The translations under genes were made by a program, and so were the position numbers. 64,000 bases of DNA from Bacteroidota bacterium (GTDB taxonomy: Bacteria > Bacteroidota > Bacteroidia > Chitinophagales > Saprospiraceae). The stretch spans positions 137,159 to 201,158 of the forward strand of contig JAAEZH010000002.1 of the NCBI GenBank assembly GCA_018222965.1, read 5' to 3'. Positions 6,697 through 49,368 of the stretch are shown here, one piece after another. The notes under the pieces are model-generated. The model was not told the origin of the DNA. It saw only the letters and a program-made list of their open reading frames with translations, and did not search any database. Position 1 is the stretch's first letter, and every line of letters starts with the position of its first letter.

Positions 6697-6719
6697 AATT
6701 CGGCGAAAGCCACAAAAGA

Positions 6720-6766
6720 AAACCCCGAATCTTCCAGGCTGGAAAATTCGGGGTTTCTTATTTTTT
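6720..6766. terminator. Bidirectional rho-independent terminator between convergent GH1 and OmpA genes. Stem AAACCCCGAAT / ATTCGGGGTTT (11 bp), 15-nt loop, flanked by an A-run and a T-run.
   Basis: Perfect inverted repeat 6720-6730 / 6746-6756 followed by TTATTTTTT. Confidence 0.75.
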
Positions 6767-6777
6767 GAAGGGTGGAA

Positions 6778-8193
6778 TTACTTCAGGTACAGGTCAAATT
6801 CTGTACGGCGGTTTTGCTGACGACCATCTTTGTAGCGGTTGTCACCAATTGGCTGCGATTCACCATAACCGGCCCAGCTCATGCGGCTGGCTTTAATCCC
6901 TTTGCTTACGAAATAATCGTAACAGGCTTTTGCCCGGTTTTCAGAAAGTGTCTGGTTGCTTTCAGAACTCCCCACACTATCGGTGTGACCACCGATTTTC
7001 ATGCTGTAGTCTGGATACTTTTTCAGGATGGAAACAATCTCATCCAGAATTGCGTAAGAAGTGGACCGGATCTTTGCAGAACCTGTTTCAAACTCTACAG
7101 CTTGTGTGGCAAAGTCCAGACGCTCCTGATCTTCCTCCTTAATTTCAGGACAACCATCATTGGAAGCCGGACCGGCAGTTGTTTTACACTTGTCATCTTT
7201 GTCCAGGACACCGTCGCCATCCGTATCCGGACAGCCATTGGCGGCAGCGCTGCCGAAATCATCCGGGCAATCGTCGTCGCCATCTGCAACGCCGTCGCCA
7301 TCGCGATCCGGACAACCCATAAGGCTTACAATACCAGCTACGGTAGGACATTTATCCTCAGCATCGGTAAGACCATCTCCATCGGAGTCGGGGCAACCTT
7401 TCATGGTAGCGAGGCCGGCAACTGTCGGACAATCATCATCACCGTCAGCAACGCCATCGCCATCGGAGTCGGGGCAACCATTTAGGTCTTTCAGGCCTGC
7501 TTCTTCCGGACAGTTGTCTACGTTGTCAGCAATCCCATCGCCATCTGTATCCGGACAGCCGAAGAAGGCAGCTACCCCCGGGGTGTCCGGGCATTGGTCG
7601 TCCATATCTGTGATGCCATCGCCATCCCTGTCGGAAGGTGGTTCTTCTCCTTCATAAGGATGCAGAATGAAAGTGGCACCCAATCCATGCTGGAGGTTAT
7701 CGCGAAATGCTGTATTGCTAAAGCGATACTCGGTCTGTGCGGTCAAATAAAAGTGAGGCATGATCCGGATATTCAATCCAATACCTACCGGAAACATGAG
7801 GTTGGTTTCTTCGTTGGCAAATTGCAATCCCAATCCACCAAAAGCATAGGGGTAGAAGCGGGCATCTTTCTCAAAATATTTGAGTTGAAGCAGCGCGTCC
7901 ACGCTCCCGAATATATCTGAAGACATAGAGCTTTTCTGGTCTACGGGAAGGTTTGCGGAACCGATTTTAACGGGAACAGCCACATTCCAGAATTGACCCA
8001 GGCTTCGGATGTACTCAATTTCCAATCCCGGAGAATAATCTTCTACCACAAAGGGCAGCCCGGTGTAGGGATAATCAAAATTAATAAAGGTGCGTTTAAC
8101 GGATAGGGCATTCGGAGCTTCAGGGTATTGAGCTTGTACGCTGGATACAAACAGAAACAATCCGAACATCATACATAGTAAAGACTTTCTCAT
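6778..8193 (-). CDS. OmpA-family outer-membrane/peptidoglycan-associated protein with multiple thrombospondin type-3 (calcium-binding DxDxDG) repeats
   Basis: 471 aa. Signal peptide. Repeated CPDTDGDGIADNVDNCP-type TSP3 repeats. C-terminal OmpA-like domain (GHTDSVGSSESNQTLSENRAKA). Confidence 0.85.
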   Translation of the reverse strand: MRKSLLCMMFGLFLFVSSVQAQYPEAPNALSVKRTFINFDYPYTGLPFVVEDYSPGLEIEYIRSLGQFWNVAVPVKIGSANLPVDQKSSMSSDIFGSVDALLQLKYFEKDARFYPYAFGGLGLQFANEETNLMFPVGIGLNIRIMPHFYLTAQTEYRFSNTAFRDNLQHGLGATFILHPYEGEEPPSDRDGDGITDMDDQCPDTPGVAAFFGCPDTDGDGIADNVDNCPEEAGLKDLNGCPDSDGDGVADGDDDCPTVAGLATMKGCPDSDGDGLTDAEDKCPTVAGIVSLMGCPDRDGDGVADGDDDCPDDFGSAAANGCPDTDGDGVLDKDDKCKTTAGPASNDGCPEIKEEDQERLDFATQAVEFETGSAKIRSTSYAILDEIVSILKKYPDYSMKIGGHTDSVGSSESNQTLSENRAKACYDYFVSKGIKASRMSWAGYGESQPIGDNRYKDGRQQNRRTEFDLYLK

Positions 8194-8314
8194 GATGCTT
8201 TTTTTGTTGGTTGCGTATTCATTTTGCCGAAACGAGTATGTTTCGGAAAATTAAGATATTAAAAATTGGCCGTAGCCACGTAAAATACCTGTGTGAATTC
8301 GCCTGAGAAGTCTG

Positions 8315-9250
8315 TTACTCCATCAATCCTCTGCCTTCTTTGTTGATCTTACCCTTCTTGGAGAGTTCTTTCATCAACCTGTCCAGAATCCCGTTTATAA
8401 AATCCTTGCTTTTGTCGGTACTGTAAAGCTTGGAAATCTCCACAAACTCATTCAGGCTAACCTTTGTGGGAATGGTCTTAAAGTAGATCAATTCGCACAA
8501 GGCCATTTTTAGAAGGATCATATCAATGACTGCTACCCGATCCACATCCCAGTTTTTCAGGGTGGGTTCGATTATGGACAGCAATTCTTCATTTTCCTCA
8601 CAAGCAAGGGACAGGAGCTTTTCCCCAAAATCCCTGACCGTTTCGTCATTGGGAATGTAATCGTCGAGAAAGTCATCATTCGCCGGAAGGCCTTTCAAAA
8701 CTTTCTTAACGGACCCAACAACCAGACTCTTATCGTCGATCCAACTGGAGTAGTGGTCTTCTACCAAATCGACAAAGAGGTCATTGGTCGCACAATGCCT
8801 GTAGAGTTCCAGAATAATAGACTGGTGATCCTCTGTTTTGGAAGTTTTCTGATAGATGTAGTTCTTGTACTCCTCCGTTCTTGCAAAGGAAGAATACAAT
8901 TTGCGCGTGATATCTGCATCCAGTCGACCCCGTAACTTAAACTTCTTGTAAGATAGGTTTAGCCGGGTGTTTTCTTCAAGCGATTGAATAAGCTCATTGT
9001 GAAAAAGCTTATCGGTAAATTGCTTGTCGAGTTCGGAAGGAAGCAGTTTGGAAGATTTTGATGCGGCATCCTTTTGAGCATAGGAAGCAACCCGCACCAA
9101 TTGAAGTATGTGAAATAAAAATAACTCGTAGGAGCGATCCACACTTTGCCGGTAACGAGACAAGGCTTGCTGGTAGGTGACTTCACTGTCGCGATTCATC
9201 GCGTACAGGACCTGCATGACTTTTATGCGAATGTTTCTTCTACTCAGCAT
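8315..9250 (-). CDS. nusB: Transcription antitermination factor NusB (long Bacteroidetes-type form)
   Basis: 311 aa. N-term RRNIRIKVMQVLYAMN resembles the NusB N-terminus. Length fits long-form bacteroidetal NusB. Confidence 0.65.
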   Translation of the reverse strand: MLSRRNIRIKVMQVLYAMNRDSEVTYQQALSRYRQSVDRSYELFLFHILQLVRVASYAQKDAASKSSKLLPSELDKQFTDKLFHNELIQSLEENTRLNLSYKKFKLRGRLDADITRKLYSSFARTEEYKNYIYQKTSKTEDHQSIILELYRHCATNDLFVDLVEDHYSSWIDDKSLVVGSVKKVLKGLPANDDFLDDYIPNDETVRDFGEKLLSLACEENEELLSIIEPTLKNWDVDRVAVIDMILLKMALCELIYFKTIPTKVSLNEFVEISKLYSTDKSKDFINGILDRLMKELSKKGKINKEGRGLME

Positions 9251-9300
9251 AGTGGATTAATCCGGGCACAAGTAAATACTTTTTTTTAAGAATGACGATT

Positions 9301-10773
9301 CTACTTCAAAAATTCAGCCTGAATCTCCTCAAAAGAGGGCAATTTTCTAATATGCCACTTTGCAATGATCTTCCCTCCATCCATCAAAACGACTCCGGGA
9401 TTAGACCTTACAATCGTCTTTAAGAGGATATCGTCGGCAACGTAAAATGGATAGGCACTCTGTGTCTCATGTCTGAAATCGTCGATCATTTCAGGTGCTG
9501 CATAGCCCGTAAGCGCATGGACCGCCACGCCGGCAGCCTCGGCTTTTTCCAATTCGGCATTCAGTTTTTTATACTTCTCCGTAAAATATTCCGGGAAGGA
9601 ATAGGTCTCGGTGTTTACCTGACGTTCGTTGATGGCTCCGGGACGGCGCTTCATGGTTAGCGTATCGTTGACCATGACCGTATCTACCATCCAGGTTGTA
9701 TCCATAACCATAGTCGAAGTGGTTTCACTTTCATGCGGGATCTTATAGGAAACGATCATAAAATGGTAACCTTCGTGTTCCAGTACTGCCTCGGTGGCCT
9801 CATTGCCGTCGAGGTCAGAGAATTCAAAATCGCTGATCTTGGTGGGCTCCATTTCCGGTTCCGTTTTTACCTGCTCCAGCTCAAAGGCATCTTTGGGGAA
9901 TTCTTTGTAGCGTTTCAGGTAATCGTCTACAGAAAGCTCAACAGTTTCTCCCGATTCCTTATTCGTAATTTTATAAGCCACTACCTGCACGGTTTCCTGT
10001 GCATCCATTTCGATTTGCTTCTGCTCAGCCACATTTACGCCTTCTTTAAACGGACGGAAATCGGTGTGTGGCAGGTCCCACTTGTAGTTGCTGCGGCAAT
10101 AGAAAAAGAGGGCGATGATACCCAGTCCGACAACCGCAAATCGCACCTGTTGGCTAAACAACTGGTGCATGTACTTGTGCTTCCAGATGAAGAAAATAGC
10201 CGGGATCAATAAGAATACATCTTTGAGGAAGGATGTTCGGGGTTCCAGCTTAATGAAATCGCCAAAACAACCACAATCCGTAACCCGCATGCTGGTTGCA
10301 TCATATGCGCCCCAGGCGCTGAAGTTGAAGAAATTTTCGCCGGAAGGCACATAACCGGTCAAATAAGTGAAACCAGTCAATACGGTGAAAAAAGCCACCA
10401 GCAGGAAAAATGCCCAGGAGGTAAACTTGGGGCGTGATCCGAGGATCAACATGATTCCCAGCGCAATTTCAAAAATGATCATGAATACCGAAAACCCGGT
10501 TGAATATTCAGACAACCAGGGAAACATGGGTGCCAGAAAAGAAAACCAGGTACCGGAAAAGGTAGCTTCAAACTCGGCAAAATACTGCTCCATTTTATAG
10601 GCAGTACCTAGTGGATCTACCGCTTTTACCCATCCTGAGAATACAAACAATGCCCCGGTAAAATGTTGGGCAAAGGTCATCAGAATGTTTTTCTGTTTCT
10701 TCATTACCACGGTAAGAAGGGTCAGCAAAATAGCTGCGATACCAATGATTAAGATCAATTTCGTCAGTGTCAT
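9301..10773 (-). CDS. DoxX-like / BT_3928-family integral membrane protein with a long acidic C-terminal extension
   Basis: 490 aa. N-terminal 4-TM DoxX-like region. Sits immediately upstream of a DUF1599 gene, a pairing conserved in Bacteroidetes. Confidence 0.5.
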   Translation of the reverse strand: MTLTKLILIIGIAAILLTLLTVVMKKQKNILMTFAQHFTGALFVFSGWVKAVDPLGTAYKMEQYFAEFEATFSGTWFSFLAPMFPWLSEYSTGFSVFMIIFEIALGIMLILGSRPKFTSWAFFLLVAFFTVLTGFTYLTGYVPSGENFFNFSAWGAYDATSMRVTDCGCFGDFIKLEPRTSFLKDVFLLIPAIFFIWKHKYMHQLFSQQVRFAVVGLGIIALFFYCRSNYKWDLPHTDFRPFKEGVNVAEQKQIEMDAQETVQVVAYKITNKESGETVELSVDDYLKRYKEFPKDAFELEQVKTEPEMEPTKISDFEFSDLDGNEATEAVLEHEGYHFMIVSYKIPHESETTSTMVMDTTWMVDTVMVNDTLTMKRRPGAINERQVNTETYSFPEYFTEKYKKLNAELEKAEAAGVAVHALTGYAAPEMIDDFRHETQSAYPFYVADDILLKTIVRSNPGVVLMDGGKIIAKWHIRKLPSFEEIQAEFLK

Positions 10774-10785
10774 GATCGGCTGTTT

Positions 10786-11379
10786 TTATTTCAGCGCTGG
10801 TTCTTCTTCCAGCTTTATTAGCGCAAAGAGTGCATAATTAATAATGTCCCGGTAATTTCCGGGCAATCCTTCAGAAACCAACATTTTACCTTCCCGGTCT
10901 TCTATCTGCCTAACCCGTATCAATTTCATCAGGATTAAATCAGTGAGGGAAGAAATGCGCATATCCCGCCAGGCTTCCCCATAATCGTGATTCTTGTCAA
11001 TCATCAGCTGACGCGTCTGATCGATCTCTTTCTCATAAAGGGAAGCCACATCGTCGGCCGGCATTTCCAAAGGGCTGTCGGCCGGCAGGCTCAATTGTAT
11101 GAGTGCCAAAATACCGTAATTCACAATGCCAATAAAGGCATCAGAAACAGGCTCGTCTACCCGTTTGGCTCCGGTTTCCTGAATTTGCCGAATCCGGCTG
11201 GCTTTGATGAATATCTGGTCTGTCAGGGAAGCCGGACGCAGGATGCGCCAGGCCGTTCCGTAGTCCTGATTCTTCTTCAAAAACAGCTGTCGGCAGATAT
11301 CCAGTTGCCGGTCGTATTGATTGAGGGTTTTCTCCACGAAAGGATTCGTTTGGCGCAAATATACCAAATGCCCGTGCAT
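10786..11379 (-). CDS. DUF1599-family protein (internally duplicated)
   Basis: 197 aa with two homologous halves (QDYGTAWRILRPASLTDQI...IRQIQE / HDYGEAWRDMRISSLTDLI...IRVRQIE). Confidence 0.65.
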   Translation of the reverse strand: MHGHLVYLRQTNPFVEKTLNQYDRQLDICRQLFLKKNQDYGTAWRILRPASLTDQIFIKASRIRQIQETGAKRVDEPVSDAFIGIVNYGILALIQLSLPADSPLEMPADDVASLYEKEIDQTRQLMIDKNHDYGEAWRDMRISSLTDLILMKLIRVRQIEDREGKMLVSEGLPGNYRDIINYALFALIKLEEEPALK

Positions 11380-11417
11380 TCTTATTAAACAGTTTTCAAA
11401 CCTTTGTTAATTGGCTG

Positions 11418-12017
11418 TTAACCAAACTGGAGGCAAAGGGAAAATCCATTGCCGTGAAAACGCAATTTGCTTAGCAAATCCTGAATCTCCGGATTATCGG
11501 CAGACAATACAATCGCTGCAGTGAGGTCAAATACAAACAGAAAGGCTCCCTGTAAGACTATCGACCGCCCAAAACCTAAAAAACGATCGGCTTTTTCACC
11601 GGTTTCTCTTTTCGAACGCTCAATCATCCAGGCACCTCCGGCCATGTAGCCCACATCCAATCCGGCATTAAACAAAAGAATCTTTTGAAAGCGGTGTTGT
11701 TGCTCGATCGTTTGGTAGAGATCAAAGGAACCCGGGTCGGTAGTCAGTGCTCCATATAATCCAAAACCGGCGAGGGTGAGATTGACCGCGTTCCAACCGA
11801 TATTCATCTGGTGGAAGTATTTGTCTGGTCCTTCACTGCCGCCCACAAGAATGGCTCCCGTAGCCATATTTCCCACAGCCCAGGTACCGAGGATGGTCAT
11901 GGCCGTTTGCTGTTTCTTTAAGCGGGATTGATTGTAATCTGTGAGTGATTGAAGGCCCTGTCCCAATGCCATGAAACCAAATAGCAGAAATAATTGGGTA
12001 AGTAGATATTTTCTCAT
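11418..12017 (-). CDS. Hypothetical membrane protein. Start moved to MRKYLL.
   Basis: The ORF-track N-terminal extension to 12074 would overlap the ggt stop and covers an intergenic copy of the recurrent 13-nt motif. MRKYLLTQLFLLFGFMALGQG is a plausible signal/TM start. Confidence 0.5.
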   Translation of the reverse strand: MRKYLLTQLFLLFGFMALGQGLQSLTDYNQSRLKKQQTAMTILGTWAVGNMATGAILVGGSEGPDKYFHQMNIGWNAVNLTLAGFGLYGALTTDPGSFDLYQTIEQQHRFQKILLFNAGLDVGYMAGGAWMIERSKRETGEKADRFLGFGRSIVLQGAFLFVFDLTAAIVLSADNPEIQDLLSKLRFHGNGFSLCLQFG

Positions 12018-12067
12018 GGCTCTTAAACAGCCAAAATTTACAGAGGTTCTGGCTTTCGCCGAATAAA

Positions 12068-13762
12068 TCACCATCCGCGAGCATCGTCGTCCGGCTGCCG
12101 GGGATCACCTGCCCCGATCAAAAGCCCGTCCGGACTGCGCATGATGGCTTTGATGCGTCCGATGGATTCTTTTTCAACCATCTTGTGCCCCAGGTTTTGC
12201 ATATCCTCCAGCCACTGGATATCCCATTTGCCGCGTTCATACCAAACTTCGTTGGGCAGCCACTGATGATGGAATCGTCCCCGATTGACAGACTCTCCAA
12301 GGGGTAGTCCGTAGAGGGCTGTATGAAGAATGACCTGATAAACCGAAGTGATGATGGTCGATCCACCCGGAGTACCTAAAACCAGAAATACCTGATCGTC
12401 TTTTTCGACTATGGTGGGTGTCATCGAACTCAGCATCCGCTTTCCAGGCTCTATTTTATTCGCTTCAGCACCTATCAACCCAAATTGATTGGGAACACCC
12501 GGTTTCAGCGAAAAGTCGTCCATCTCGTTGTTGAGGAAAAATCCGGCACCACCTACCACGACCTTTGAACCGTAATTTGAATTCAGGGTAGTGGTAACGG
12601 ATACGGCATTGCCTTCCTGATCAACAATGGAAGTATGTGTGGTTTCAAAGGATTCCAGATGCACACTTACCTTACCGGCAGCAACGGAATCGCTTTGACT
12701 GGCAGCATTTGGGTCAAAGTCTGCCAAACGATCTTCGAGGTAGATTTTATTTAAAAGGCTGTCAACAGGTACGGGATAATAATCCATATCTCCCAAAAAC
12801 TGAGCCCGGTCGGCATAAACGCGCCGCATGGCTTCAACCATCAAATGGTGGTTGGCTGTTGATAAGGGTTTATTGGGAATCAGCCGATCCTCTGTCATTT
12901 TTAATAACTGAAGCAGGGCTACGCCACCACTGCTGGGCGGAGGCATCGCTATGACTTTATGCCCCAGAAAGTCTCCAAGGAGTGGTTCTCGCCATTGAGC
13001 ATTGTAGGCAATCAGATCTTCGGCAGTAATGAGCCCCTGGCCCCGTTCCATTTCTTCCAAAATCAGGCGGGCGGTTTCTCCGGCATAAAAGCCGGATTCG
13101 CCTTCATCCCTTATTCGCTCCAGGGTTATTGCCAGTTCCGGTTGAATGATTACCTGCCCGGCCCGCCAGACTTTTCGACTGAGAAATGGATTGTCCTGAG
13201 TGGAGTATTTTTCAAAATCTTCTGCATATCTATTAAGCCGTGTCGCTTCTGTTTCTGAAATTCGAAATCCGTCGCGAGCCAGTTTAATGGCTGGTTCCAG
13301 CAATATTTTCCAATCTGCTATCTTGCCATATCTCTCATGTACCTTAACCATGCCATCTACAGTACCGGGTACGCCTGATGCGAGATGTCCCTTCAGGCTG
13401 AGATCCGGAATGACAATACCGCTGCTGTCCAGATACATTTCGGCGAAAGCCGCAGCAGGTGCCTTTTCCCGATAATCCAAAGCGGCTGTACTTCCATCGT
13501 TGTTTCGCAAAACCAGGAATCCGCCGCCACCGAGGTTTCCGGCACGTGGATAGACGACAGCCAGCGCAAATTGAACGGCCACAGCAGCATCAACGGCATT
13601 GCCACCTTCCTTCAATATTTGCAGTCCGACTTCAGAGGCGAGGGGATGCGGAGAAACTACCATGGCTTCTTCTCCCATAGCCAGTTTTGACGCCTCGTAT
13701 CCCGAATCGAGTTTACAGGAACACCAAATAAGTAGGAGAGACAGGGAAAGAAATCTCAGCAT
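12068..13762 (-). CDS. ggt: Gamma-glutamyltransferase (Ntn-hydrolase, autoprocessing Thr)
   Basis: 564 aa. Signal/lipobox (LIWCSC). AGNLGGGGF, the autoprocessing site ESFETTHTS and GTPGGSTIIT motifs are present. Confidence 0.9.
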   Translation of the reverse strand: MLRFLSLSLLLIWCSCKLDSGYEASKLAMGEEAMVVSPHPLASEVGLQILKEGGNAVDAAVAVQFALAVVYPRAGNLGGGGFLVLRNNDGSTAALDYREKAPAAAFAEMYLDSSGIVIPDLSLKGHLASGVPGTVDGMVKVHERYGKIADWKILLEPAIKLARDGFRISETEATRLNRYAEDFEKYSTQDNPFLSRKVWRAGQVIIQPELAITLERIRDEGESGFYAGETARLILEEMERGQGLITAEDLIAYNAQWREPLLGDFLGHKVIAMPPPSSGGVALLQLLKMTEDRLIPNKPLSTANHHLMVEAMRRVYADRAQFLGDMDYYPVPVDSLLNKIYLEDRLADFDPNAASQSDSVAAGKVSVHLESFETTHTSIVDQEGNAVSVTTTLNSNYGSKVVVGGAGFFLNNEMDDFSLKPGVPNQFGLIGAEANKIEPGKRMLSSMTPTIVEKDDQVFLVLGTPGGSTIITSVYQVILHTALYGLPLGESVNRGRFHHQWLPNEVWYERGKWDIQWLEDMQNLGHKMVEKESIGRIKAIMRSPDGLLIGAGDPRQPDDDARGW

Positions 13763-13956: not shown

Positions 13957-13970
13957 TGATCAGCGGATTG

Positions 13971-32323: not shown

Positions 32324-32370
32324 AAGAAAACCCGAATCCACCAATGGCGGATTCGGGTTTTTTATTTTTA
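32324..32370. terminator. Bidirectional rho-independent terminator between convergent VIT-VWA and T9SS-cargo genes. Stem CCCGAATCC / GGATTCGGG, 9-nt loop. A-run upstream, T-run TTTTTTATTTTT downstream.
   Basis: Inverted repeat 32331-32339 / 32349-32357. Confidence 0.75.
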
Positions 32371-41358: not shown

Positions 41359-42942
41359 ATGAATGTATTGTTGGCGATTAACCCGACCCTGATGGTCACC
41401 CTTGGAGCCATTGGCTTCTTCACCTTCTTGCTGATCCTGTTTTTTATCAGCCGTTATAAGCGTTGTCCGTCGGATAAAATCCTGGTGGTTTACGGCCGCA
41501 CAGGAACCGATCAAAGCGCCAAGTGTTATGCGGGCGGTGCAGCCTTCATCTGGCCGGTTATCCAGGACTATGAGTACCTGGACCTGAAACCCATTCCAAT
41601 TGATGTGAACTTGCAGGATGCCCTTTCTAAGCAGAATATTCGTGTATCGGTACCGGCGCAGTTTACCGTTGGAATTTCCAACAAACCGGAATTGATGATT
41701 GCCGCAGCAGAGCGTCTGCTCGGATTACAGCGCAATGATATCAGTTCGCTTGCTCATGATATCATTATGGGACAAATGCGCCTCGTAATTGCCAATATGG
41801 ATATCGAGGAACTGAATGTTGATCGCGATAAATTCGTGGAGTCAGTATACGGACACGTAGGAGAGGAGCTTCACAAGATCGGGCTGGAACTGATCAACGT
41901 AAACGTAACGGATATCCACGACGAGTCCAGCTACATCAAAGCCCTCGGACAGGAAGCTGCAGCCAAAGCCATCAATGACGCTAAGGTGAAAGTAGCGATG
42001 GAAGAGCGCAGTGGTAGCATTGGTCAGGCGGAGGCTAAGCAGGAACAACGGACCAAAGTAGCGCAGGCTAACAGCCGGGCCGAAATTGGAGAAGCAGAAG
42101 CAAGTGCAGCTGCCATTGAAGGAAAAAACCTGTCTGAGATCACAGTGGCAGAATCCAATGCCAAGCGCGATGTACAGATGACGGAAGCTGATGCACAGGC
42201 AGAAATCGGGAAAGCAGAAGCAAATGCTGCAGCGACAACCGGAAAAAACCTGTCTCAGATCAAAGTAGCCGAATCGGATGCCGAGCGCGATATCAGGATT
42301 GCTGAATCTCGTCGCCGCTCCATTGCCGCTCAGAAAGTTGCTCAGGCGAAAGCCATGCAGGAGGCGTATATGGCAGAAAAAGAAACAGAACTTGCCCGCG
42401 CCGAAGTGGAATCTGCCAAGCGCAAAGCCGACGAGGTGGTAAAAGCAAGCATAGAAAAAGAGAAAGCAGTGATTGCTGCACAGGCAGAGGCAGAACGAAA
42501 TCGGGAAATTGCTAAGGGAGATGCTGATGCGATTCTTTCCAAACTGGAGGCACAGGCGAAAGGAACGGAAGAATTGCTCCGCAGCCAGGCCGAAGGATTC
42601 AAGAAACTGGTTGATGCAGCGGGAGGAGACGCGCAAAGTGCGATCGGATTACTCCTGGTAGATAAGCTCACAGAACTGGCTGAAATTCAGGTGAGTGCGA
42701 TCAAGAACCTCGACATCGACAAAGTAGTGGTATATGACAATGGTTCCGGACAGGGAGTTGGCAATCTGGTACAGGGATTGTACGCTGCGGTGCCTCAACT
42801 CAATGACTTTCTAAACCAGGCCGGATTGAGTCTGCCAAATATGCTGGTGAAAAACCCGGATGGTCTGGAGAAAGGGAAAGCCCGAAATTCGGCGAAAGCC
42901 ATAAACGGAACCCCTGAAACTTCGGAAGAAGAGAACCAGTAA
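41359..42942 (+). CDS. Flotillin / SPFH (band-7) domain protein
   Basis: 527 aa. N-terminal TM. SPFH domain. Long Ala/Glu-rich coiled-coil repeats (AEAKQEQRTKVAQANSRAEIGEAEA...). Classic NfeD-flotillin operon. Confidence 0.9.
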   Translation: MNVLLAINPTLMVTLGAIGFFTFLLILFFISRYKRCPSDKILVVYGRTGTDQSAKCYAGGAAFIWPVIQDYEYLDLKPIPIDVNLQDALSKQNIRVSVPAQFTVGISNKPELMIAAAERLLGLQRNDISSLAHDIIMGQMRLVIANMDIEELNVDRDKFVESVYGHVGEELHKIGLELINVNVTDIHDESSYIKALGQEAAAKAINDAKVKVAMEERSGSIGQAEAKQEQRTKVAQANSRAEIGEAEASAAAIEGKNLSEITVAESNAKRDVQMTEADAQAEIGKAEANAAATTGKNLSQIKVAESDAERDIRIAESRRRSIAAQKVAQAKAMQEAYMAEKETELARAEVESAKRKADEVVKASIEKEKAVIAAQAEAERNREIAKGDADAILSKLEAQAKGTEELLRSQAEGFKKLVDAAGGDAQSAIGLLLVDKLTELAEIQVSAIKNLDIDKVVVYDNGSGQGVGNLVQGLYAAVPQLNDFLNQAGLSLPNMLVKNPDGLEKGKARNSAKAINGTPETSEEENQ

Positions 42943-42963
42943 ACCCTGAAACCCCACAGGAGT

Positions 42964-42997
42964 GCCGGCAGTGCGAGAGTGCTGACCGGCATTTTTT
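42964..42997 (+). terminator. Terminator for the NfeD-flotillin operon (imperfect GCCGG...CCGGC stem followed by ATTTTTT); the T-run overlaps the stop codon of the convergent SLC13 gene
   Basis: Inverted repeat 42964-42990 then T-run 42992-42997. Confidence 0.5.
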
Positions 42998-44777
42998 AAA
43001 AGTACCAGTATGGAATAATCAAAGTGGCAAGTAACCAAACCAGCAAGGTGAGAAATCCGCCTACTTTTACAAAATCGAAGAAGCTGTAATTTCCCGGACC
43101 ATAAATCAGGGTATTGGTTTGATAGCCTATTGGAGACATAAAGCTCGCATTGGCTGCAAACATTACCGTAAATAGCAAGGGCCGTGGATCCAGCTGGAGA
43201 TTACCGGCTATAGAAATGGCAATAGGAGCCAATAATACGGCTGTCGCATTGTTGGATATAACCGCACTCAATATAGCCGTAAAAATAAATAGTACGCTGA
43301 TGAGACTACGGGGTGAAACAGCACCAAATAAGGCTACAAAAGTATCGGCTATCAATTGACTGGCCCCGGTGTTGTTCATGGCAATACCCAGGGGAATCAC
43401 ACCTGCCAGCAGGAAGTAAACACTCCAGTCGACCCGCTGATAAGCTTGCTGCATTTTGAGGCAGCCCGTCAAGAACATAATCGCACAGCCAGCAAGCGCA
43501 CTTACGAGAATAGGTAATAGTTGAAAAGAAGCTACCAGGATTACCGCTATCATTATGCCTGCTGCCAGCCAGCGCTTGTCGGTTCGGGGAGCCAGGTTTT
43601 CATGCTCTTGCAACACGACAAACCCGGGTAGGTTATAGAAACGTCGAAAATTGGATTTCCCAACTTCCATGAGCAGCGTGTCTCCCGATTCAACTCTAAC
43701 CTTATTGAAGTTTCTGGAGTAGGTTTTTCGGTTTTTCCGTAAGGCCAGCGGAATGGCATTGTAATCTCTTCTTACAGGAATCTTTTTCAGGGATTTACCG
43801 AGGAGGCGTGAATTTGGCTGCACAACCACTTCACAAAGAATCATATCCTCTGTATTTAGACGATCGTCGTCTTCAATTTTTTTTCGGGGAAGCAGCTTTA
43901 CCTCATTATCCAGCCTGAGCTCAGCAATGGTTTCCAATCCGGCTTTGATCAGCAATACATCGCCTTCCCGAAGGATTTCAGTTTCGGTCGGAAAGTGGGG
44001 CTTTTCTTCCCGGGTTTTCAATTCAATCAGATCAATCTCATCGTCGGTAAAAAAGCTGGTTTCTCCAATTTTCTTTCCCGCAAGGGTTGACCCGGGCTGT
44101 ATGGATATCTCAGTTAGATAGTCCTGTATCTCATATTCGTTGATGAGAGAGTCTTCTTTCTTTTTTCGAGCCGGAATGATATGCCTTCCGGCGAATAACA
44201 TAAAGAGGATACCTCCAATCCAAAAGATCACACCAATTTTAGAAAATTCGAATATCCCGAAAGCTTCTATCCCGTTTTCCCGTGCGATGGAGCTCACCAG
44301 AAGGTTTGTAGAGGTGCCAAACAGGGTGCACGATCCTCCCAAAATAGCGGCGAAGGAGAGGGGCATCAAAAGCTTGGAAAGGTTGGTTTGTATCTCTTTG
44401 GATAAGTTAATGATGATCCGGAGGAAAACGATTACAACCGCGGTTGTACTGATGAAGGCAGAAAAACCGCCCACAATAATCATGAGTGTGAGTATAATGA
44501 CCCATTCCTGCTGGTCGAAGAGTTTTCTAAGCCGACGACCAAGGCTGGTGATGACCCCGGTCGTTTCTAGTCCGACACTCAATATCATCAGTGCCAAAAC
44601 CGTCACCGTTGCCTGATTGGACATTCCCGACAATCCCTCCTGAGGACTGACAAATCCTCCTACCATGAGTAAAACCATGAGCACCAAAGAGGCTGTGTCT
44701 GGCGGGATCAATTCCAAAGCCAGAACAACAATCAGTCCCAGAATCAGAGCAAAAAGTATGGCAATTTCCAGTGTCAT
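42996..44777 (-). CDS. SLC13/DASS (CitT/ArsB-superfamily) anion permease with two central cytoplasmic TrkA-C (RCK_C) domains
   Basis: 593 aa. TM-rich N and C halves separated by a duplicated approximately 70-aa soluble module (about 220-385), consistent with two RCK_C/TrkA_C-like domains. Confidence 0.75.
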   Translation of the reverse strand: MTLEIAILFALILGLIVVLALELIPPDTASLVLMVLLMVGGFVSPQEGLSGMSNQATVTVLALMILSVGLETTGVITSLGRRLRKLFDQQEWVIILTLMIIVGGFSAFISTTAVVIVFLRIIINLSKEIQTNLSKLLMPLSFAAILGGSCTLFGTSTNLLVSSIARENGIEAFGIFEFSKIGVIFWIGGILFMLFAGRHIIPARKKKEDSLINEYEIQDYLTEISIQPGSTLAGKKIGETSFFTDDEIDLIELKTREEKPHFPTETEILREGDVLLIKAGLETIAELRLDNEVKLLPRKKIEDDDRLNTEDMILCEVVVQPNSRLLGKSLKKIPVRRDYNAIPLALRKNRKTYSRNFNKVRVESGDTLLMEVGKSNFRRFYNLPGFVVLQEHENLAPRTDKRWLAAGIMIAVILVASFQLLPILVSALAGCAIMFLTGCLKMQQAYQRVDWSVYFLLAGVIPLGIAMNNTGASQLIADTFVALFGAVSPRSLISVLFIFTAILSAVISNNATAVLLAPIAISIAGNLQLDPRPLLFTVMFAANASFMSPIGYQTNTLIYGPGNYSFFDFVKVGGFLTLLVWLLATLIIPYWYF

Positions 44778-44868
44778 AGCAAGGATTGGGCTTCCTAAAT
44801 TAGAAATTTGCCAGACAATTATTTGTTCGATTTCTCCCCAAAAAGATGGTGTAATTTGTAGGGCCTTC

Positions 44869-44876
44869 TATCTTTG
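44869..44876 (+). promoter_or_regulatory. Candidate -7 promoter box TATCTTTG, 25 nt upstream of the first gene of the tandem lipoprotein array
   Basis: Matches the Bacteroidetes TAnnTTTG consensus. No clear -33 TTG. Confidence 0.3.
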
Positions 44877-44900
44877 ATGAAATTTTTCTCAAACAACTAA

Positions 44901-45455
44901 ATGAAACAAATGAAAAACCGCAACTCAATTCTGTTGGGCTGCCTGGTGGCAGGCCTGTTCCTTTTCGCTTCCTGTGGCAAGGACAAATTCAAACAAGATC
45001 CGGAAAAACTGCCAAATGGCACCATAATCTGTAAGGCAGACGGGGATGTTTACGAGACGGCAATTGGAACTGCAATACTAACCGGCAATGGTGGGTTTTC
45101 ACTGAATATTACCGGACTGGCGTCTATTACAGATCCACGATTATTAAATATTATTGCCACCATTCCGGACGGTCAGATGTTGGATGCTATTTCTTACACC
45201 AGTGCTGATGGGCAGGATTGCATCCCGAATCCGGATATTTGCTTTTTAGTGTCTTATGCGGATACCAATATATCAGAATACGGATTCGATAACGGAGGAA
45301 CCAATGGAACTGCAACCATCACTTTCACCACCATGGAGTTTGAAGCGGGTGGGCAGTTGGCAGGGACCTTCTCCGGATACCTCGTCGATGATTTTGGAAA
45401 TACCGGAGCGGTGGAAATCACAGAAGGTAAATTCAATTTGACCTTTGCTAATTAA
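44901..45455 (+). CDS. Small lipoprotein, member 1 of a tandem four-gene paralogous family (unknown function)
   Basis: 184 aa. Lipobox LFASCGKD. Shared motifs: G(T)I.CK.DG, DPDICF, G.FSG.L....G...VEIT.GKFNL. Confidence 0.7.
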   Translation: MKQMKNRNSILLGCLVAGLFLFASCGKDKFKQDPEKLPNGTIICKADGDVYETAIGTAILTGNGGFSLNITGLASITDPRLLNIIATIPDGQMLDAISYTSADGQDCIPNPDICFLVSYADTNISEYGFDNGGTNGTATITFTTMEFEAGGQLAGTFSGYLVDDFGNTGAVEITEGKFNLTFAN

Positions 45456-45506
45456 CTAATACCCCGATCTGGTATATTCCAGGTTCGAGGTTTTAAATCT
45501 AATATC

Positions 45507-46052
45507 ATGAACCTAAAACCAACATACCTTCTCCTAATTTTCTTAATTATTGCATTTTCCCTTCCATCTTGTACTAACGATCCGGGAGGAACAAAGCTCG
45601 GTACCATTCAATGCAAAGTGGACGGCAAGAAGTTTAAAACAAAGGTGGGATCAGCCACTATCGGAGATATATCTTCCGGGTCTGGATTTTTTTCTATACA
45701 GGGATTCGAAGATTTGATCCCAATTGGATCTGATTATGTACAAATTTTTTCCGGAATAGAGGATGATCAATATAGTCTTGAAGAAATCATGTATGGTACT
45801 ACAAATACCATCGATTCAATGTATTGTGATCCATATCCGGATATCTGCTTTGGTATGGTTTTCAGAGATGGTGATTCACAGGAAGAATTTAGCTCAGGGG
45901 AAGTTGGAGGAGCATTTGAAATCACCTTTGAAAAAATGATTTTTGAGCAGGGTGAAAACATTAACGGGACCTTTTCCGGAAGATTAATAAGTTCTGATTC
46001 CGGGGAAGAAATAGAAGTGACAGATGGGGTCTTTAACCTTGAAATATTGTAA
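45507..46052 (+). CDS. Small lipoprotein, paralogous family member 2
   Basis: 181 aa. Lipobox LPSCTND. GTIQCKVDGKKFKT, DPYPDICF, INGTFSGRLIS...EIEVTDGVFNLEI. Confidence 0.7.
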   Translation: MNLKPTYLLLIFLIIAFSLPSCTNDPGGTKLGTIQCKVDGKKFKTKVGSATIGDISSGSGFFSIQGFEDLIPIGSDYVQIFSGIEDDQYSLEEIMYGTTNTIDSMYCDPYPDICFGMVFRDGDSQEEFSSGEVGGAFEITFEKMIFEQGENINGTFSGRLISSDSGEEIEVTDGVFNLEIL

Positions 46053-46108
46053 AGGACCAGGTAAGACTTAATTGCATTTTATAAAAAATTGGCCTAAAAA
46101 ACGCTTCA

Positions 46109-46672
46109 ATGAGATACCTGAAATCTAAGCTTATTTTTACTGTTATACTGGCTGTGGTATTGCTAAGTTCTTGTGTCCGTGACCCTTTTCAATCGGAACC
46201 CGAAAAGATTCGTTTGGGAACCATTGCCTGTAAAGCCAAGGGAAAAGAATTTAAAACTGAATTAGGAACAGCCGTTTACGGAAACTTTCAGGGAAATGGA
46301 ATTAATAACATCTTCTTGATTTCCGGGTTCGAATCTCTGGGGATAACAACCAGTGGATTGATTCAAATTACAGCATATATAGACCCTTCAATTGGGATCG
46401 AAGAAATTACGTATACAACTGGGGGAAATCGAACAAATTGTGTTCCTGATTTACAGCTATGCTGGGGTATTATTTATGGAGATGTAGCGGAGGAGGTGAC
46501 AGGACATTCGGATGATACCGGAGGTGCATTTACAATATCATTTTCTCGGGTAGACTTCCGTGAAGGCGGGGTAATATCAGGTAGGTTTTCTGGCACTGTG
46601 ATTAGTGAGGAAACTGGTGAAATTTTTGAAATTTCTGAAGGCATTTTTAATCTGGAAATTACTGGAGGATAG
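46109..46672 (+). CDS. Small lipoprotein, paralogous family member 3
   Basis: 187 aa. Lipobox LLSSCVRD. GTIACKAKGKEFKT, DLQLCWG, ISGRFSGTVIS...IFEISEGIFNLEI. Confidence 0.7.
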   Translation: MRYLKSKLIFTVILAVVLLSSCVRDPFQSEPEKIRLGTIACKAKGKEFKTELGTAVYGNFQGNGINNIFLISGFESLGITTSGLIQITAYIDPSIGIEEITYTTGGNRTNCVPDLQLCWGIIYGDVAEEVTGHSDDTGGAFTISFSRVDFREGGVISGRFSGTVISEETGEIFEISEGIFNLEITGG

Positions 46673-46710
46673 AAAATCATTATAGGTGCCTTCCTAAAAA
46701 AACATCAACT

Positions 46711-47262
46711 ATGTTAGAGAGTATTTATCGTTTCTCATTCCTTAGTCTGGCCGTTTCTGTGATTCTGCTATCAAGCAGTTGCAGTCCGTTTGGTGCAGAT
46801 CCGGACAAAGTCAAACCGGGCACCTTTGTTTGTAAGGTCGATGGGGAAAAGTTTAAGGCCAGTCTGACGACCGCTTCGGTAACGGAACTTAGCAGTACCA
46901 CTTCGTTGAATACTTACGGGTACAAATCGGTCATTGCCCTGGGGTCGGACTTTGTCACTTTTGGTATTGATTATCCTACCTCCAGTGGTTTGGATGCCAT
47001 CACCTATACCTACAACAGCGGGGCTACCGATGCCTGTATGCCCGACCCGGAGATCTGTGCGCAACTGACCTTTTACCAGTGGGAGGAAAACAAAACCTTT
47101 GAAGCTGGTTTTGGTGTTGGTTCGATGGAGGTCACTTTTGGTACGATTGAAATTCAAAGCGGTGGATTGATTACTGCTTCTTTTTCAGGCACGCTCGTTG
47201 AGGCGGGAAGCGGCAAAGAAGTGCCGGTAACAGAAGGTGTATTTAGTGTCGAAATTGAATAA
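46711..47262 (+). CDS. Small lipoprotein, paralogous family member 4
   Basis: 183 aa. Lipobox LLSSSCSP. GTFVCKVDGEKFKA, DPEICAQ, ITASFSGTLVE...EVPVTEGVFSVEI. Confidence 0.7.
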   Translation: MLESIYRFSFLSLAVSVILLSSSCSPFGADPDKVKPGTFVCKVDGEKFKASLTTASVTELSSTTSLNTYGYKSVIALGSDFVTFGIDYPTSSGLDAITYTYNSGATDACMPDPEICAQLTFYQWEENKTFEAGFGVGSMEVTFGTIEIQSGGLITASFSGTLVEAGSGKEVPVTEGVFSVEIE

Positions 47263-47269
47263 CAGGTTC

Positions 47270-47656
47270 ATGAAAGAACATGAGGCCCGAATTAAAGCTT
47301 CAGAGACGAGCATTTTTAAAGCGGTATTTCCCAATACCACCAATCACTACGATACCTTGTTTGGGGGCATGGCTATGAGCCTGATGGATGAGGTAGCTTT
47401 TATTACGGCGACTCGGTTCAGCCGGAAGAAGGTTGTGACGGTTAGTTCTAGTAAGATCGATTTTAAGAAGCCCATCCCGCATGGCACCATCATTGAAGTT
47501 GTTGGAAAGATAACCGAGATTGGCACCACAAGCATGCAGGTAGATGTACACATTTATATGGAGGAAATGTACCGGGATCATCGGGAGCATGTAATTCGCG
47601 GCCTCTTTACTTTCGTAGCTGTTGGAGATGATAAAAAGCCGGTTCCCATCTTGTAA
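47270..47656 (+). CDS. Hotdog-fold acyl-CoA thioesterase (YciA-like). Start moved to MKEHEARI to avoid overlap with the upstream gene.
   Basis: About 128 aa. HYDTLFGGMAMSLMDEVAFITATRFS...VTVS matches the YciA/thioesterase hotdog consensus. Confidence 0.75.
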   Translation: MKEHEARIKASETSIFKAVFPNTTNHYDTLFGGMAMSLMDEVAFITATRFSRKKVVTVSSSKIDFKKPIPHGTIIEVVGKITEIGTTSMQVDVHIYMEEMYRDHREHVIRGLFTFVAVGDDKKPVPIL

Positions 47657-47710
47657 TTCCGGGATATTTCTTAATTTGATCCATCCTTTCTTATTGCTCT
47701 GCAGAAACTT

Positions 47711-47727
47711 CGGTTGACCGTCAACCG
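47711..47727. promoter_or_regulatory. Perfect 17-nt palindrome CGGTTGACCGTCAACCG at the 5' boundary of the next gene. Candidate operator for a dimeric DNA-binding protein.
   Basis: Exact inverted repeat (8+1+8). Not followed by a T-run, so it is not a terminator. Confidence 0.35.
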
Positions 47728-48310
47728 ATATAATGTCAATTCTATGAGCCAAACCAAAGAAACCGCGCATCATTTTCACGTTCGTCCGAGATTTCAGGTA
47801 GAATCCGATCAGTCTGTGGATGATATTGCCGCTAATATTAAGTCCGCTTTACAACGCGAAGGAGCTACCTGCAAAGGAAGAATCAAGCACGGCTTTGCTA
47901 CTTTGTGGATTCCTCATGAAGAGCAGCACTACTGGTCTCCGCAGTTGACTCTTACGCTCGAAAAAACAGAAGAAGGGACCAGTTTATTGCGGGGAGTTTA
48001 TGGTCCGCGCCCCTCCGTTTGGACCATGTTCATCTTTTTTTATTCTGTGATCGGTTTTGCGATGATGGTGATCTCCATCGTGGGGTTTAGTAATGTATCA
48101 CTCGACAAGTCTGGTAAGATTCTTTGGTTATTACCGGTTTTGTTTGTGATTTTTCTGTCCCTGTATCTGGTAGCATATTTTGGGCAGAAGCTCGGCCAAA
48201 AGCAGATGGTTGTTCTGCATCTCTTTGTAGAAAAGAGTACCGGATTTGTTATTGATCCCAGACAGGATTTGATGGTAGATCCGGAGGAAGTTTTAAAGAA
48301 GAAGCCGTAA
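47714..48310 (+). CDS. Hypothetical membrane protein (3 C-terminal TM helices). True start may be MSQTKE at about 47744.
   Basis: 198 aa. No recognisable domain. Confidence 0.45.
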   Translation: MTVNRYNVNSMSQTKETAHHFHVRPRFQVESDQSVDDIAANIKSALQREGATCKGRIKHGFATLWIPHEEQHYWSPQLTLTLEKTEEGTSLLRGVYGPRPSVWTMFIFFYSVIGFAMMVISIVGFSNVSLDKSGKILWLLPVLFVIFLSLYLVAYFGQKLGQKQMVVLHLFVEKSTGFVIDPRQDLMVDPEEVLKKKP

Positions 48311-48393
48311 AAGATTGATTCATCATCAGAATGAACGAATCTCTTACGGCTTTCCTTCCATTCAGTTAGACCGTTTCAGGAAATGCCAGAAAA

Positions 48394-49074
48394 TTAATTA
48401 CCCGTAACACGGCCAATGTACTCCCCATATTGTTCGGGAGTCATGAGTTGAGGTACGTATTCTGTTCCCTGAAGTCTTAATTCTCTAACGTAGGCACGCA
48501 GGTGATTAACGGAGGCTGTAATTAAGTTCTCATACAGCGTGCTAATATCCAGGTTGTCTACCTGATTATTGATCGCATCTTTGCGATGGAGAATGGCAAA
48601 TTCCTGAATATAAGCACCTGCCAGAAAGGCTTCGGTCAATTCTGTTTTGCCATTGGCAAGAAGATCGTTGTACATGTTTTGAAGCTCAGTATCGGCAAAC
48701 ACTCCGGTACTATTGCTGCCAATCGGATCTTCCAACTCATATTTTTCGAGCAGAAGAAGCATGGCATCCATGTGGTTTTGCTCGGTAATGGCCATTCTGC
48801 TAAAAATACGGGGTTCATAGTTTTCGCTGAGGCTTTCATTCAAATCCCGAGCGAGTTTTTCTTCTTCCCGCATCCAAAGAACGCTGTTGATTTCTGTCTG
48901 ACTCAGGTTTTCTGCCGGATTCAGATTTAAATTGTGATTAAGTGCAGTCAGATTGATTTCGGTATAACCGGTATTTCGGTTTACATCCAAAATGTCGGTG
49001 TAGGGATAATCAAATGAGCGGTCGCAACTACCGAAAACGAGGACCGCAAAGCTAAGGATGAGTAGTTTTTTCAT
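48394..49074 (-). CDS. Ferritin-like-superfamily lipoprotein (DUF2202-like)
   Basis: 226 aa. Lipobox VFGSCDRS. Two E..H-like helical segments (MREEEKLARD..., ...MDAMLLLLEKYE, IQEFAILHRKD) suggestive of a di-iron ferritin-like fold. Confidence 0.5.
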   Translation of the reverse strand: MKKLLILSFAVLVFGSCDRSFDYPYTDILDVNRNTGYTEINLTALNHNLNLNPAENLSQTEINSVLWMREEEKLARDLNESLSENYEPRIFSRMAITEQNHMDAMLLLLEKYELEDPIGSNSTGVFADTELQNMYNDLLANGKTELTEAFLAGAYIQEFAILHRKDAINNQVDNLDISTLYENLITASVNHLRAYVRELRLQGTEYVPQLMTPEQYGEYIGRVTGN

Positions 49075-49368
49075 GATGCTTCATTTAATGGTTTACAGAA
49101 GCAAGTGGTATTTCCGATACCTAATGGGTTGTACAGTGCCCGGCACTGTAAATATAGATCAATCATAGACGCAGTTTGGTGATCCGGGTCACCGGGGAAG
49201 AGTGATTTTTAAATGTAAAATTTTAAATTAAGACGTGGCCAGATTCGCCGAAAGGCAACCGGTCAAAAAAAAAGCGCATAAAGTCGTGTTTTTTCCTGGA
49301 GCGGTTAAGGCAGGATCGGAGGTGTTTGGCAAAAGCTTTCTACCTTTGCAGTAACAAGTTGTAATCTA

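Follow-up and report, generated by a model that had tools for sequence, protein, structure and literature searches.

A recurrent 13-nt DNA word with the features of a mini-hairpin in a Saprospiraceae contig

Introduction

Why should one short, nearly palindromic DNA word recur, letter for letter, between genes and inside unrelated genes of a bacterial chromosome? The question is raised by a 64 000-nucleotide stretch of contig JAAEZH010000002.1 (positions 137 159–201 158, forward strand; GenBank assembly GCA_018222965.1), which belongs to a Saprospiraceae metagenome-assembled genome (MAG) of the phylum Bacteroidota and is referred to below, at its full length, as the window. An initial annotation of its letters had noticed exact copies of a 17-mer, GCCTTTCGGCGAAAGCC, or of 13-nt parts of it. 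Hyper-abundant short words are known from a few groups only (Neisseriaceae, Pasteurellaceae and cyanobacteria), and each of them opened questions on DNA uptake, recombination and genome self-identity. The Bacteroidota are of great ecological and medical weight, and some of their competent members prefer their own DNA for a reason that is still unexplained. Here, we describe the repeating element, a 13-nt unit with a constant TTC and a predicted mini-hairpin, its distribution in the window and in other genomes, and the roles that it might have.

Repeating unit and abundance

The repeating unit is the 13-mer TTC-GSC-GNAA-GSC (all copies are written in one orientation), which consists of a TTC prefix and a 3-bp stem with an inner C–G pair that encloses a GNAA loop. 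Exact units number 20 in the window and are distributed over 17 sites, with 12 units on the plus strand and eight on the minus strand. Eight are copies of TTCGGCGAAAGCC (starting at 6699, 13439, 14509, 26599 and 42888 on the plus strand and at 12051, 22204 and 32479 on the minus strand) and six are exact copies of GCCTTTCGGCGAA (among them 31084 and 49244, counted as the sequence or its reverse complement). The six others differ from GCCTTTCGGCGAA at one shared position, namely five copies of GCCTTCCGGCGAA (8679, 10336, 44183, 51102 and 58491) and one of GCCTTACGGCGAA (21165). The near-palindromic 17-mer, which the initial annotation had regarded as the unit, occurs at 14505–14521 (+), 26595–26611 (+) and 32479–32495 (−) and resolves into two 13-nt units on opposite strands with a 9-nt overlap (GCC-TTTC-GGC-GAAA-GCC). 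A single unit is present at 13 of the 17 sites, and it is the TTC with its 3-bp-stem GNAA mini-hairpin that recurs. An exact re-search returned every coordinate given in that annotation, including a one-base-deleted variant at 60275–60289, but its list was incomplete: the units at 22204–22216 (−) and 22915–22927, the five copies of GCCTTCCGGCGAA and the single GCCTTACGGCGAA had been overlooked.

The excess over chance that had been claimed for the motif is borne out and proves larger than had been claimed. Perfect units are expected 0.1–0.17 times in Markov simulations of order 3 and order 5, compared with 20 observed, and dinucleotide shuffles give 0.08–0.13 matches per 13-mer with one mismatch allowed, the observed count being reached in 0 of 100 shuffles; the unit is over-represented more than 100-fold in the window. 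With increasing numbers of mismatches the observed and expected counts converge: 20 against 0.1–0.2 at zero mismatches, four against 0.8–1.5 at one, 12 against 10–17 at two and 93 against 98–110 at three. The spectrum is all-or-none, sites being either perfect or unrelated to the motif, with almost no halo of near-matches. The 17 sites are as follows.

6699–6711 (+): TTC-GGC-GAAA-GCC; intergenic, 3 nt past the GH1 stop codon
8679–8691 (+): TTC-GCC-GGAA-GGC; antisense in a NusB-family gene
10336–10348 (+): TTC-GCC-GGAA-GGC; antisense in a MauE-domain gene
12051–12063 (−): TTC-GGC-GAAA-GCC; between ggt and a DUF6992 gene, intergenic according to the gene calls on the Logan contig (see below)
13439–13451 (+): TTC-GGC-GAAA-GCC; antisense in ggt
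14505–14521 (both strands): 17-mer, two overlapping units on opposite strands; alpha-2-macroglobulin (A2M) gene
21165–21177 (+): TTC-GCC-GTAA-GGC; antisense in gene 20666–21787
22204–22216 (−): TTC-GGC-GAAA-GCC; sense in a pyridoxal phosphate (PLP)-decarboxylase-like gene
22915–22930 (both strands): TTC-GCC-GAAA-GGC on the minus strand (22915–22927), overlapping TTCGGCGAAGCC, a GAA-triloop variant, on the plus strand
26595–26611 (both strands): 17-mer, two overlapping units; Clp-like AAA+ ATPase gene
31084–31096 (+): TTC-GCC-GAAA-GGC; sense in a VIT-VWA gene
32479–32495 (both strands): 17-mer, two overlapping units; near the 3′ end of a type IX secretion system (T9SS) cargo gene
42888–42900 (+): TTC-GGC-GAAA-GCC; sense in a Band-7/flotillin gene
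44183–44195 (−): TTC-GCC-GGAA-GGC; sense in a CitMHS transporter gene
49244–49256 (+): TTC-GCC-GAAA-GGC; intergenic
51102–51114 (−): TTC-GCC-GGAA-GGC; sense in gene 51048–51560
58491–58503 (+): TTC-GCC-GGAA-GGC; sense in an alpha-L-fucosidase gene

Internal pairing

The two S positions of the unit change together. In TTCG-S1-CG-N-AAG-S2-C, the S1/S2 combination in the window is C/G 12 times and G/C eight times, C/C and G/G are absent, and A/T is found once. When the stem requirement is dropped, all 23 window sites of the form TTC-NNC-GNAA-GNN are fully complementary (chance 1/16 per site), with five stem types among them (GGC, GCC, GAC, AGC and CGC). The loop letter N is A in 14, G in five and T in one of the 20 units. 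The TTC prefix is unaltered when the loop varies and thus is not simply the mirror of a partner unit's loop; it precedes 23 of the 41 paired NNC-GNAA-GNN hairpins of the window, and the trinucleotide on the 3′ side shows no preference. Probable family members with other stems, a related palindrome and the four one-mismatch sites are listed here.

2521–2533 (−): probable family member, other complementary stem, TTC-GAC-GAAA-GTC
15064–15076 (−): probable family member, TTC-AGC-GAAA-GCT
19411–19423 (+): probable family member, TTC-CGC-GAAA-GCG
60274–60289 (both strands): GCTTTCGCGAAAGGC in the GH3 gene, containing TTT-CGC-GAAA-GCG on the minus strand; of the type of a 16-mer palindrome, CGCTTTCGCGAAAGCG, of a flavobacterial MAG
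38364–38376 (−): one-mismatch relic, TcCGCCGTAAGGC
1408 (+), 4132 (−) and 6018 (−): the other three one-mismatch sites

By its sequence, the 13-nt unit is a member of the known class of 'DNA mini-hairpins' (GCGAAAGC / CCGAAAGG), one or the other of which every unit contains exactly; GCGAAAGC itself occurs 18 times in the window, both strands summed. The class was described for GCGNNAGC and GCGNAGC (Hirao and Kimoto), with a C–G closing pair and a loop that starts with G and ends with A, and is exceptionally stable (PMC13037366). The closing pair, a loop with G first and A last and at least two G–C stem pairs, which define it (PMC13037366), are found in all 20 units, a GAA-triloop variant is present at 22919, and the ViennaRNA DNA parameters return the fold ...(((....))) for the unit. 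In nature the class is known from isolated sites in the origins and promoters of phages or plasmids, whereas here the hairpin is amplified across a chromosome behind a fixed TTC. Since such sequences are reportedly avoided in natural DNA, being described in a review as less frequent than chance (PMC13037366), their amplification in this lineage would need a positive cause.

The unit might be a signal in replication or repair. The mini-hairpin would exclude single-stranded DNA-binding protein (SSB) and serve as a landing site for primase, PriA, a recombination mediator or a topoisomerase, and it would be kept by ordinary selection for chromosome maintenance without any drive. The unit, as TT-CGGCGAAAGCC, agrees at 11 of 12 nt with the mini-hairpin CGGCGAAAGCCG in the phage G4 origin, a hairpin with a melting temperature of 89 °C, resistance to exonuclease and poor binding of SSB that has been proposed as a primase entry point, and the ssiA site of RSF1010 uses CCGAAGG (PMC13037366). 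The even spacing of the units, about one per 3–4 kb, would suit this role, as would the conserved single-stranded trinucleotide 5′ of the hairpin, which resembles a primase initiation site. However, a lagging-strand signal should be strand-specific, and the strand split in the window given above (12 to 8) shows no clear bias; close relatives do without the unit, conservation of individual sites is not obviously required for such a role, and TTC is not a known bacterial primase trinucleotide. We therefore consider a replication signal possible but unlikely.

The internal pairing also bears on whether the duplex is read. In all 130 copies of the 17-mer seen anywhere the S positions are C, G, C, which holds by construction for the metagenome loci, picked with the exact sequence; the independent content of this set is that other S combinations never appear as an extra site. 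The C, G, C choice breaks the dyad symmetry and allows each strand to fold its own GNAA hairpin, and the GGAA and GTAA loop variants lose the palindrome and retain the hairpin. Both features argue against the symmetric duplex site for an abundant protein that had been suggested in the initial annotation. Here, a dimeric nucleoid-associated protein, a ParB/Noc-like protein or a global regulator would bind the 17-mer as its operator and the 13-mers as half-sites. The proposal draws on the near-palindromic sequence, on all-or-none conservation at sites inside genes, which resembles that of parS and Noc sites, on the positions conserved between two flavobacterial genomes and on the T-run and A-run flanks that extend the dyad in that lineage (see below). 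It is rather improbable nonetheless: the full 17-mer is present at only four of 18 sites, the S positions are a non-symmetric choice, the TTC stays constant while the loop varies, and one unit per 3–4 kb in coding DNA is unlike the distribution of parS, Noc-binding sites (NBS) or matS.

Genomic context

The 17 sites are evenly spread, with 1, 5, 3, 2, 1, 2, 2 and 1 in successive 8-kb bins (variance-to-mean ratio 0.87), a density of about one per 3.8 kb. Three of the 17 sites are intergenic and 14 lie in genes, in a window that is ∼92% coding. Units occupy all three reading phases; by the open reading frames (ORFs), 11 units are sense and seven antisense, and of the single units within genes seven are sense and four antisense. 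Intergenic copies are present between convergent genes. The peptides that had been quoted for the sites are reproduced by translation. With three phases, both strands and intergenic copies in use, a protein-level motif is ruled out and conservation is at the level of DNA, as had been proposed. Pfam confirms the gene names of the initial annotation (GH1, ggt, A2M, Clp-like ATPase, VIT-VWA, T9SS cargo, Band-7/flotillin and GH3) and describes an ordinary housekeeping region, which also includes guaA, an SSF transporter, OmpA, NusB, a peptidase S46 and a fucosidase. The GC skew within the window tracks gene orientation.

Read as RNA, GSC-GNAA-GSC is a classic GNRA-tetraloop hairpin that might affect the stability, processing or termination of transcripts, and an RNA structure would be expected to have a covarying stem and an unconstrained loop N. 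Such an element is very unlikely here. Single units are antisense in four of 11 coding cases in the window and in 19 of 26 in the flavobacterial set described below, intergenic copies lie between convergent genes, no Rfam family matches the window or 12 related loci, and a 3-bp stem that is not followed by a T-run is weak for a terminator.

The initial annotation had also raised the possibility of an editing or assembly artefact, a caution for which no further support emerged. Positions 1–12173 of the window recur in the Logan assembly of run SRR7663132 at 99.99% identity, every motif site included, and this independent assembly rules out an artefact of assembly or polishing. Its contig carries a fourth 17-mer inside the 3.7 kb beyond the left end of the window, which brings the full 17-mers to four of 18 sites (window and left extension), all four inside ORFs. 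That the copies might instead belong to one mobile element, such as a miniature inverted-repeat transposable element (MITE), or to another longer repeat is refuted by flanks that are unrelated between sites, on which the initial annotation had already relied, and by intact ORFs without an indel relative to orthologs; moreover, the hairpin family is seen in unrelated projects (Tara, ERZ1740058 and SRR31214393). Both versions of this explanation are thus extremely improbable.

Origin by substitution

The genome nearest to that of the window is another Saprospiraceae MAG (L001), which is syntenic with it and shares 75% protein identity in the Clp-like ATPase. Codon alignments of the two are free of indels at the motif sites examined. 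At the Clp site, the window reads AAG GCT TTC GCC GAA AGG CCG and L001 reads GAT GCC TTT GCC AAG CGG CCA (KAFAERP versus DAFAKRP), with substitutions only, and in gene 20666–21787 the L001 ortholog, which has no unit, likewise differs by substitution without an indel. The gap-free alignments indicate that the units were written by substitutions into tolerant positions, and comparison of these genes shows them arising in place, through point changes where the protein tolerates them.

In the window's own lineage, the nearest relatives lack the motif altogether. The core unit is absent from the ∼21, 15 and 15 kb examined of L001, L131 (same lineage, 75% protein identity) and L133 (67%), and the few matches to the hairpin pattern in these three pair at about chance level. 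Among the Saprospiraceae compared, the motif is a trait specific to the lineage of the window.

Occurrence in a flavobacterial lineage

A scan of metagenome contigs for the exact 17-mer gave at least 120 loci; these were chosen by carrying the 17-mer, which makes its conservation among them circular. Most of the matched loci listed, together with four viral matches, are single occurrences over all GC contents and were taken as chance. Among the matches listed, three groups stand out: CEQG01 (Tara), with at least 15 independent 17-mer sites in differing flanks, ERZ1740058, with at least nine sites whose flanks resemble those of the window, and Ga01149xx, with at least eight sites on contigs of 36% GC. 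One protein of a CEQG01 contig (L024) is identical to a protein of MAG GCA_002710685.1, which is labelled Cytophagaceae and has Leeuwenhoekiella spp. (Flavobacteriaceae) as its closest named relatives; the other CEQG01 contigs are joined to L024 by sample and GC content only, two of them being of lower GC (0.38–0.40). The Flavobacteriaceae belong to a different class from the Saprospiraceae.

The pairing is repeated in this second lineage. Of the 89 TTY-NNC-GNAA-GNN sites in the flavobacterial set, 74 have complementary stems (∼40 of 55 after removal of the 17-mers by which the loci had been selected), with six stem types and all four loop letters. Copies are intergenic more often there and frequently flanked by T-runs and A-runs. 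The 16-mer palindrome CGCTTTCGCGAAAGCG, abundant and often intergenic on the CEQG01 contigs L056, L064, L071 and L097, consists of two hairpin units with a 10-nt overlap. A second short palindrome, TTTTGGCTTAAAGCCAAAA, which has no GNAA loop, is enriched and often intergenic on L011, L057, L064 and L097.

The stability of individual sites can be judged from L128, which was fetched by protein, not by motif, and shares 81% protein identity with the flavobacterial MAG (L127). Five of seven unit sites are shared at orthologous positions and vary only at the loop N (GTAA/GGAA, GAAA/GCAA) or at the Y of the prefix, in one case by a single synonymous change (TTT versus TTC); in the rest of the PIG-L gene, identity at third codon positions is 0.44. 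The 17-mer of that gene encodes SLSAKA in L127 and L128, where 48 other homologs have a (V/T)LPSxxK-type sequence without a gap. At each of the two sites that are not shared, the genomes are four substitutions apart.

Such a jump of four substitutions at once, not one, is among the points that could speak for short-patch templated conversion. In this process, partial matches would be overwritten with the exact unit, either from a small and abundant template of RNA or single-stranded DNA (such as a retron-like one) or through a nickase of the homing type and ectopic repair. The all-or-none mismatch spectrum and the discrete stem and loop types, which look like possible master copies, are in line with it. 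On the other hand, the single synonymous change is compatible with ordinary point mutation, relics with one mismatch are present, the window shows neither a reverse transcriptase nor a nuclease gene, and several independent substitutions are also expected at these divergences. We judge this route improbable.

Some further properties of the metagenome loci should be noted. In low-GC loci (CEQG01, Ga01149xx and others) a T-run 5′ and an A-run 3′ of the 17-mer are usual and extend the imperfect dyad to ∼23 nt; the window copies have no such flanks. Promoter and terminator readings of the flanks were dropped, the T-run being 5′ of the hairpin on both strands. Seven low-GC contigs (the L005 and L105 groups) are invariant over a block of 21 bases; this apparent 'deep conservation' was withdrawn as the loci had been selected for the 17-mer. 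The gene in one low-GC group (L005, L023, L061, L062, L068, L098 and L129/L130) is a Flavobacterium GT2 glycosyltransferase in which the 17-mer encodes a conserved AFAER, with GC-rich codons in genomes of ∼33% GC. Of the GT2 orthologs not selected by motif, the one from the cultured Flavobacterium sp. Fl-318 has retained just the 13-mer TTCGGCGAAAGCC at this site and the one from F. tructae has none. A tandem repeat with a ∼7-nt period (GTAGTGA/ACTCACT) dominates the k-mer counts of the Ga0079223/Ga0079224 loci (L006, L025, L036 and L109). On L032, an ORF with a 17-mer near its start (6507–7754, minus strand) matches PF18967 (PycTM Pycsar effector), an anti-phage defence component.

Relation to known systems

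The 13-mer and 17-mer sequences have no match in the literature searched, and concept searches found nothing comparable. The likeness in behaviour that the initial annotation saw to DNA uptake sequences (DUS), uptake signal sequences (USS) and highly iterated palindrome 1 (HIP1) holds, and an equivalent for Bacteroidota was not found in that literature. What the window contains is, as its base pairing indicates, a hyper-abundant genomic word defined by a hairpin, in a phylum where none was found described in the literature searched.

Like the Neisseria DUS (a 12-mer) and the Pasteurellaceae USS (a 9-mer core), the unit is a lineage-specific short word far above chance, which occurs on both strands and within genes in more than one frame. 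It originates through substitutions where the codons allow them, has perfect copies that far outnumber near-misses and recurs about once per few kilobases; retention at orthologous positions, as in related species with DUS or USS, is seen in the flavobacterial pair L127 and L128. The differences lie in its structure. DUS and USS are non-palindromic duplex words without internal covariation that are read by a pilin or receptor, whereas the unit is structure-defined and accepts any complementary stem and a free loop letter. The inverted pairs of DUS and USS are separate and form intergenic terminators; here, the paired units overlap by 9 nt inside genes and no T-run follows.

HIP1 (GCGATCGC) of cyanobacteria is a further parallel. 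It exceeds expectation 15- to 300-fold and shows conservation within ORFs (PMC5861425), and like the unit it is hyper-abundant and conserved within and between ORFs with no peptide or RNA role, a phylum-level oddity whose function was long a puzzle and has lately been linked to transformation (bioRxiv 2024.09.10.611283; 10.64898/2026.06.24.733823). However, HIP1 is a perfect 8-bp palindrome with two methyltransferase sites, whereas the unit is 13 nt long, asymmetric owing to its 5′ TTC and tolerant of loop and stem changes that preserve pairing. Membership in a class of perfect even-length palindromes can be rejected: the unit lacks symmetry, the S positions in the 17-mer are non-dyadic and the palindrome is lost in the loop variants. 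A related explanation is that the unit is made or kept by a methyltransferase with biased repair, or is otherwise tied to methylation, so that the duplex is recognized and the hairpin is incidental. HIP1, whose over-representation and conservation within ORFs are mirrored here (PMC5861425), is recognized by two orphan methylases, DmtA and DmtC; in addition, the patchy distribution of the unit fits mobile restriction–modification or methyltransferase genes, and its core, TTCGSCGAA, is a 9-bp odd palindrome. Against this, the central S covaries with an S outside the palindromic core, which has no basis in duplex symmetry, and the GGAA and GTAA variants are fully accepted. Furthermore, the flavobacterial lineage uses six stems where a methyltransferase site is one sequence, and 13 specified letters far exceed known methylation motifs. 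A methylation word is accordingly distinctly unlikely.

Dispersed hairpin-forming repeats form another group with some resemblance, including repetitive extragenic palindromic (REP) sequences, REP doublets forming hairpins (REPINs), bacterial interspersed mosaic elements (BIMEs), Correia elements, MITE-like repeats and Rickettsia palindromic elements (RPEs), the last of which are also genic. These are 20–150 nt long, extragenic (in-frame insertions in the case of RPEs) and spread by transposition with shared flanks or indels, whereas the unit has only 13 nt, no indel and no shared flank. REP, REPIN or MITE membership was rejected on the unrelated flanks, the 14 genic sites of 17 and the lack of indels relative to orthologs, and an insertion of the Rickettsia type on gap-free alignments at the sites examined. 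Finally, parS, Noc sites and matS are exact palindromic words of conserved position within genes. They number few to tens per genome, are clustered or regional and are true dyads read as duplex, in contrast to the unit, which is found about once per 3–4 kb, mostly as a half-unit and with non-dyadic S positions; the mostly single units and their even density of ∼1 per 3.8 kb led us to reject a parS/NBS-like site.

Possible function

The covarying stem, the free loop letter and the fixed 5′ TTC point to read-out of a folded single strand, which no known uptake or HIP word shows. Our preferred explanation, to which we assign a probability of roughly 0.4, is that the unit is a DNA-level tag of the DUS, USS or HIP1 kind, recognized in its folded, single-stranded form and kept by drive or selection. 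The unit would act on DNA, not on RNA or protein, and a trans-acting factor specific to the lineage would recognize either the folded single strand or a staggered mini-cruciform. This factor may give motif-bearing DNA an advantage in transmission or survival during DNA uptake, recombination or single-strand processing, and the motif would then accumulate and be preserved by molecular drive or selection, like DUS, USS and HIP1. The presence of the family in a Saprospiraceae MAG and a Flavobacteriaceae MAG, and its absence from the closest Saprospiraceae relatives, suggest a driver that is gained and lost horizontally.

Several points weigh against such a tag. No competence gene, methyltransferase, nuclease, reverse transcriptase or other trans-acting factor is found by Pfam among the window genes. 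The genome-wide density is extrapolated from 68 kb (the window and the 3.7 kb to its left). Conservation of orthologous sites is shown in one genome pair, which is flavobacterial and not of the window's own lineage. The orientation of single units is inconsistent, with seven sense and four antisense in the window compared with seven sense and 19 antisense in the long ORFs of the flavobacterial set. Covariation of the S positions could stem in part from the copying of a few master sequences and not from a structural constraint. To our knowledge, the uptake receptors described so far read duplex DNA, and an uptake tag read as a hairpin would be without precedent. Lastly, nearest-neighbour parameters give the unit only −2.1 kcal/mol, and its high stability leans on published data for related oligonucleotides, a class for which standard thermodynamic parameters are reported to fail (PMC13037366).

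A bolder version of the tag, which we regard as rather unlikely, has the single-stranded TTC and mini-hairpin as the first genome-wide tag to be defined by structure and not by sequence, one that is read by a horizontally mobile uptake, recombination or defence factor and was amplified independently in Saprospiria and Flavobacteriia, or else has the units written by short-patch templated conversion. It might be the missing self-recognition signal of competent Bacteroidota: Riemerella spp. are naturally competent and prefer their own DNA, and the tag involved is not yet identified (PMC7965970). The base-pairing signature makes specific and cheap experiments feasible, in which stem-broken oligonucleotides are compared with stem-swapped ones (e.g. 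of TTCGGCGAAAGCC and TTCGCCGGAAGGC), and the patchy distribution could be exploited, through phylogenetic profiling, to track down the gene responsible.

Other features of the region

Three further features of the window were noted. The gene at 10786–11379 on the minus strand, which lies among motif sites, contains two copies of PF07659 (DUF1599, 'Nucleotide modification associated domain 1'), for which no link to the motif was shown. Within the T9SS cargo gene (32368–36846), a 12–15-mer, AACCATTTGCATCGG, occurs four times on the plus strand (33254, 33503, 33746 and 34232) with spacings of 243, 249 and 486 nt; tandem Ig-like/PKD domain repeats are its most likely source, and it has no relation to the hairpin motif. 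Finally, four tandem paralogous small genes (181–187 residues) at 44901–47262 on the plus strand have no Pfam match, and each encodes a signal peptide with a lipobox-like cysteine; the group looks like a lineage-specific lipoprotein array.

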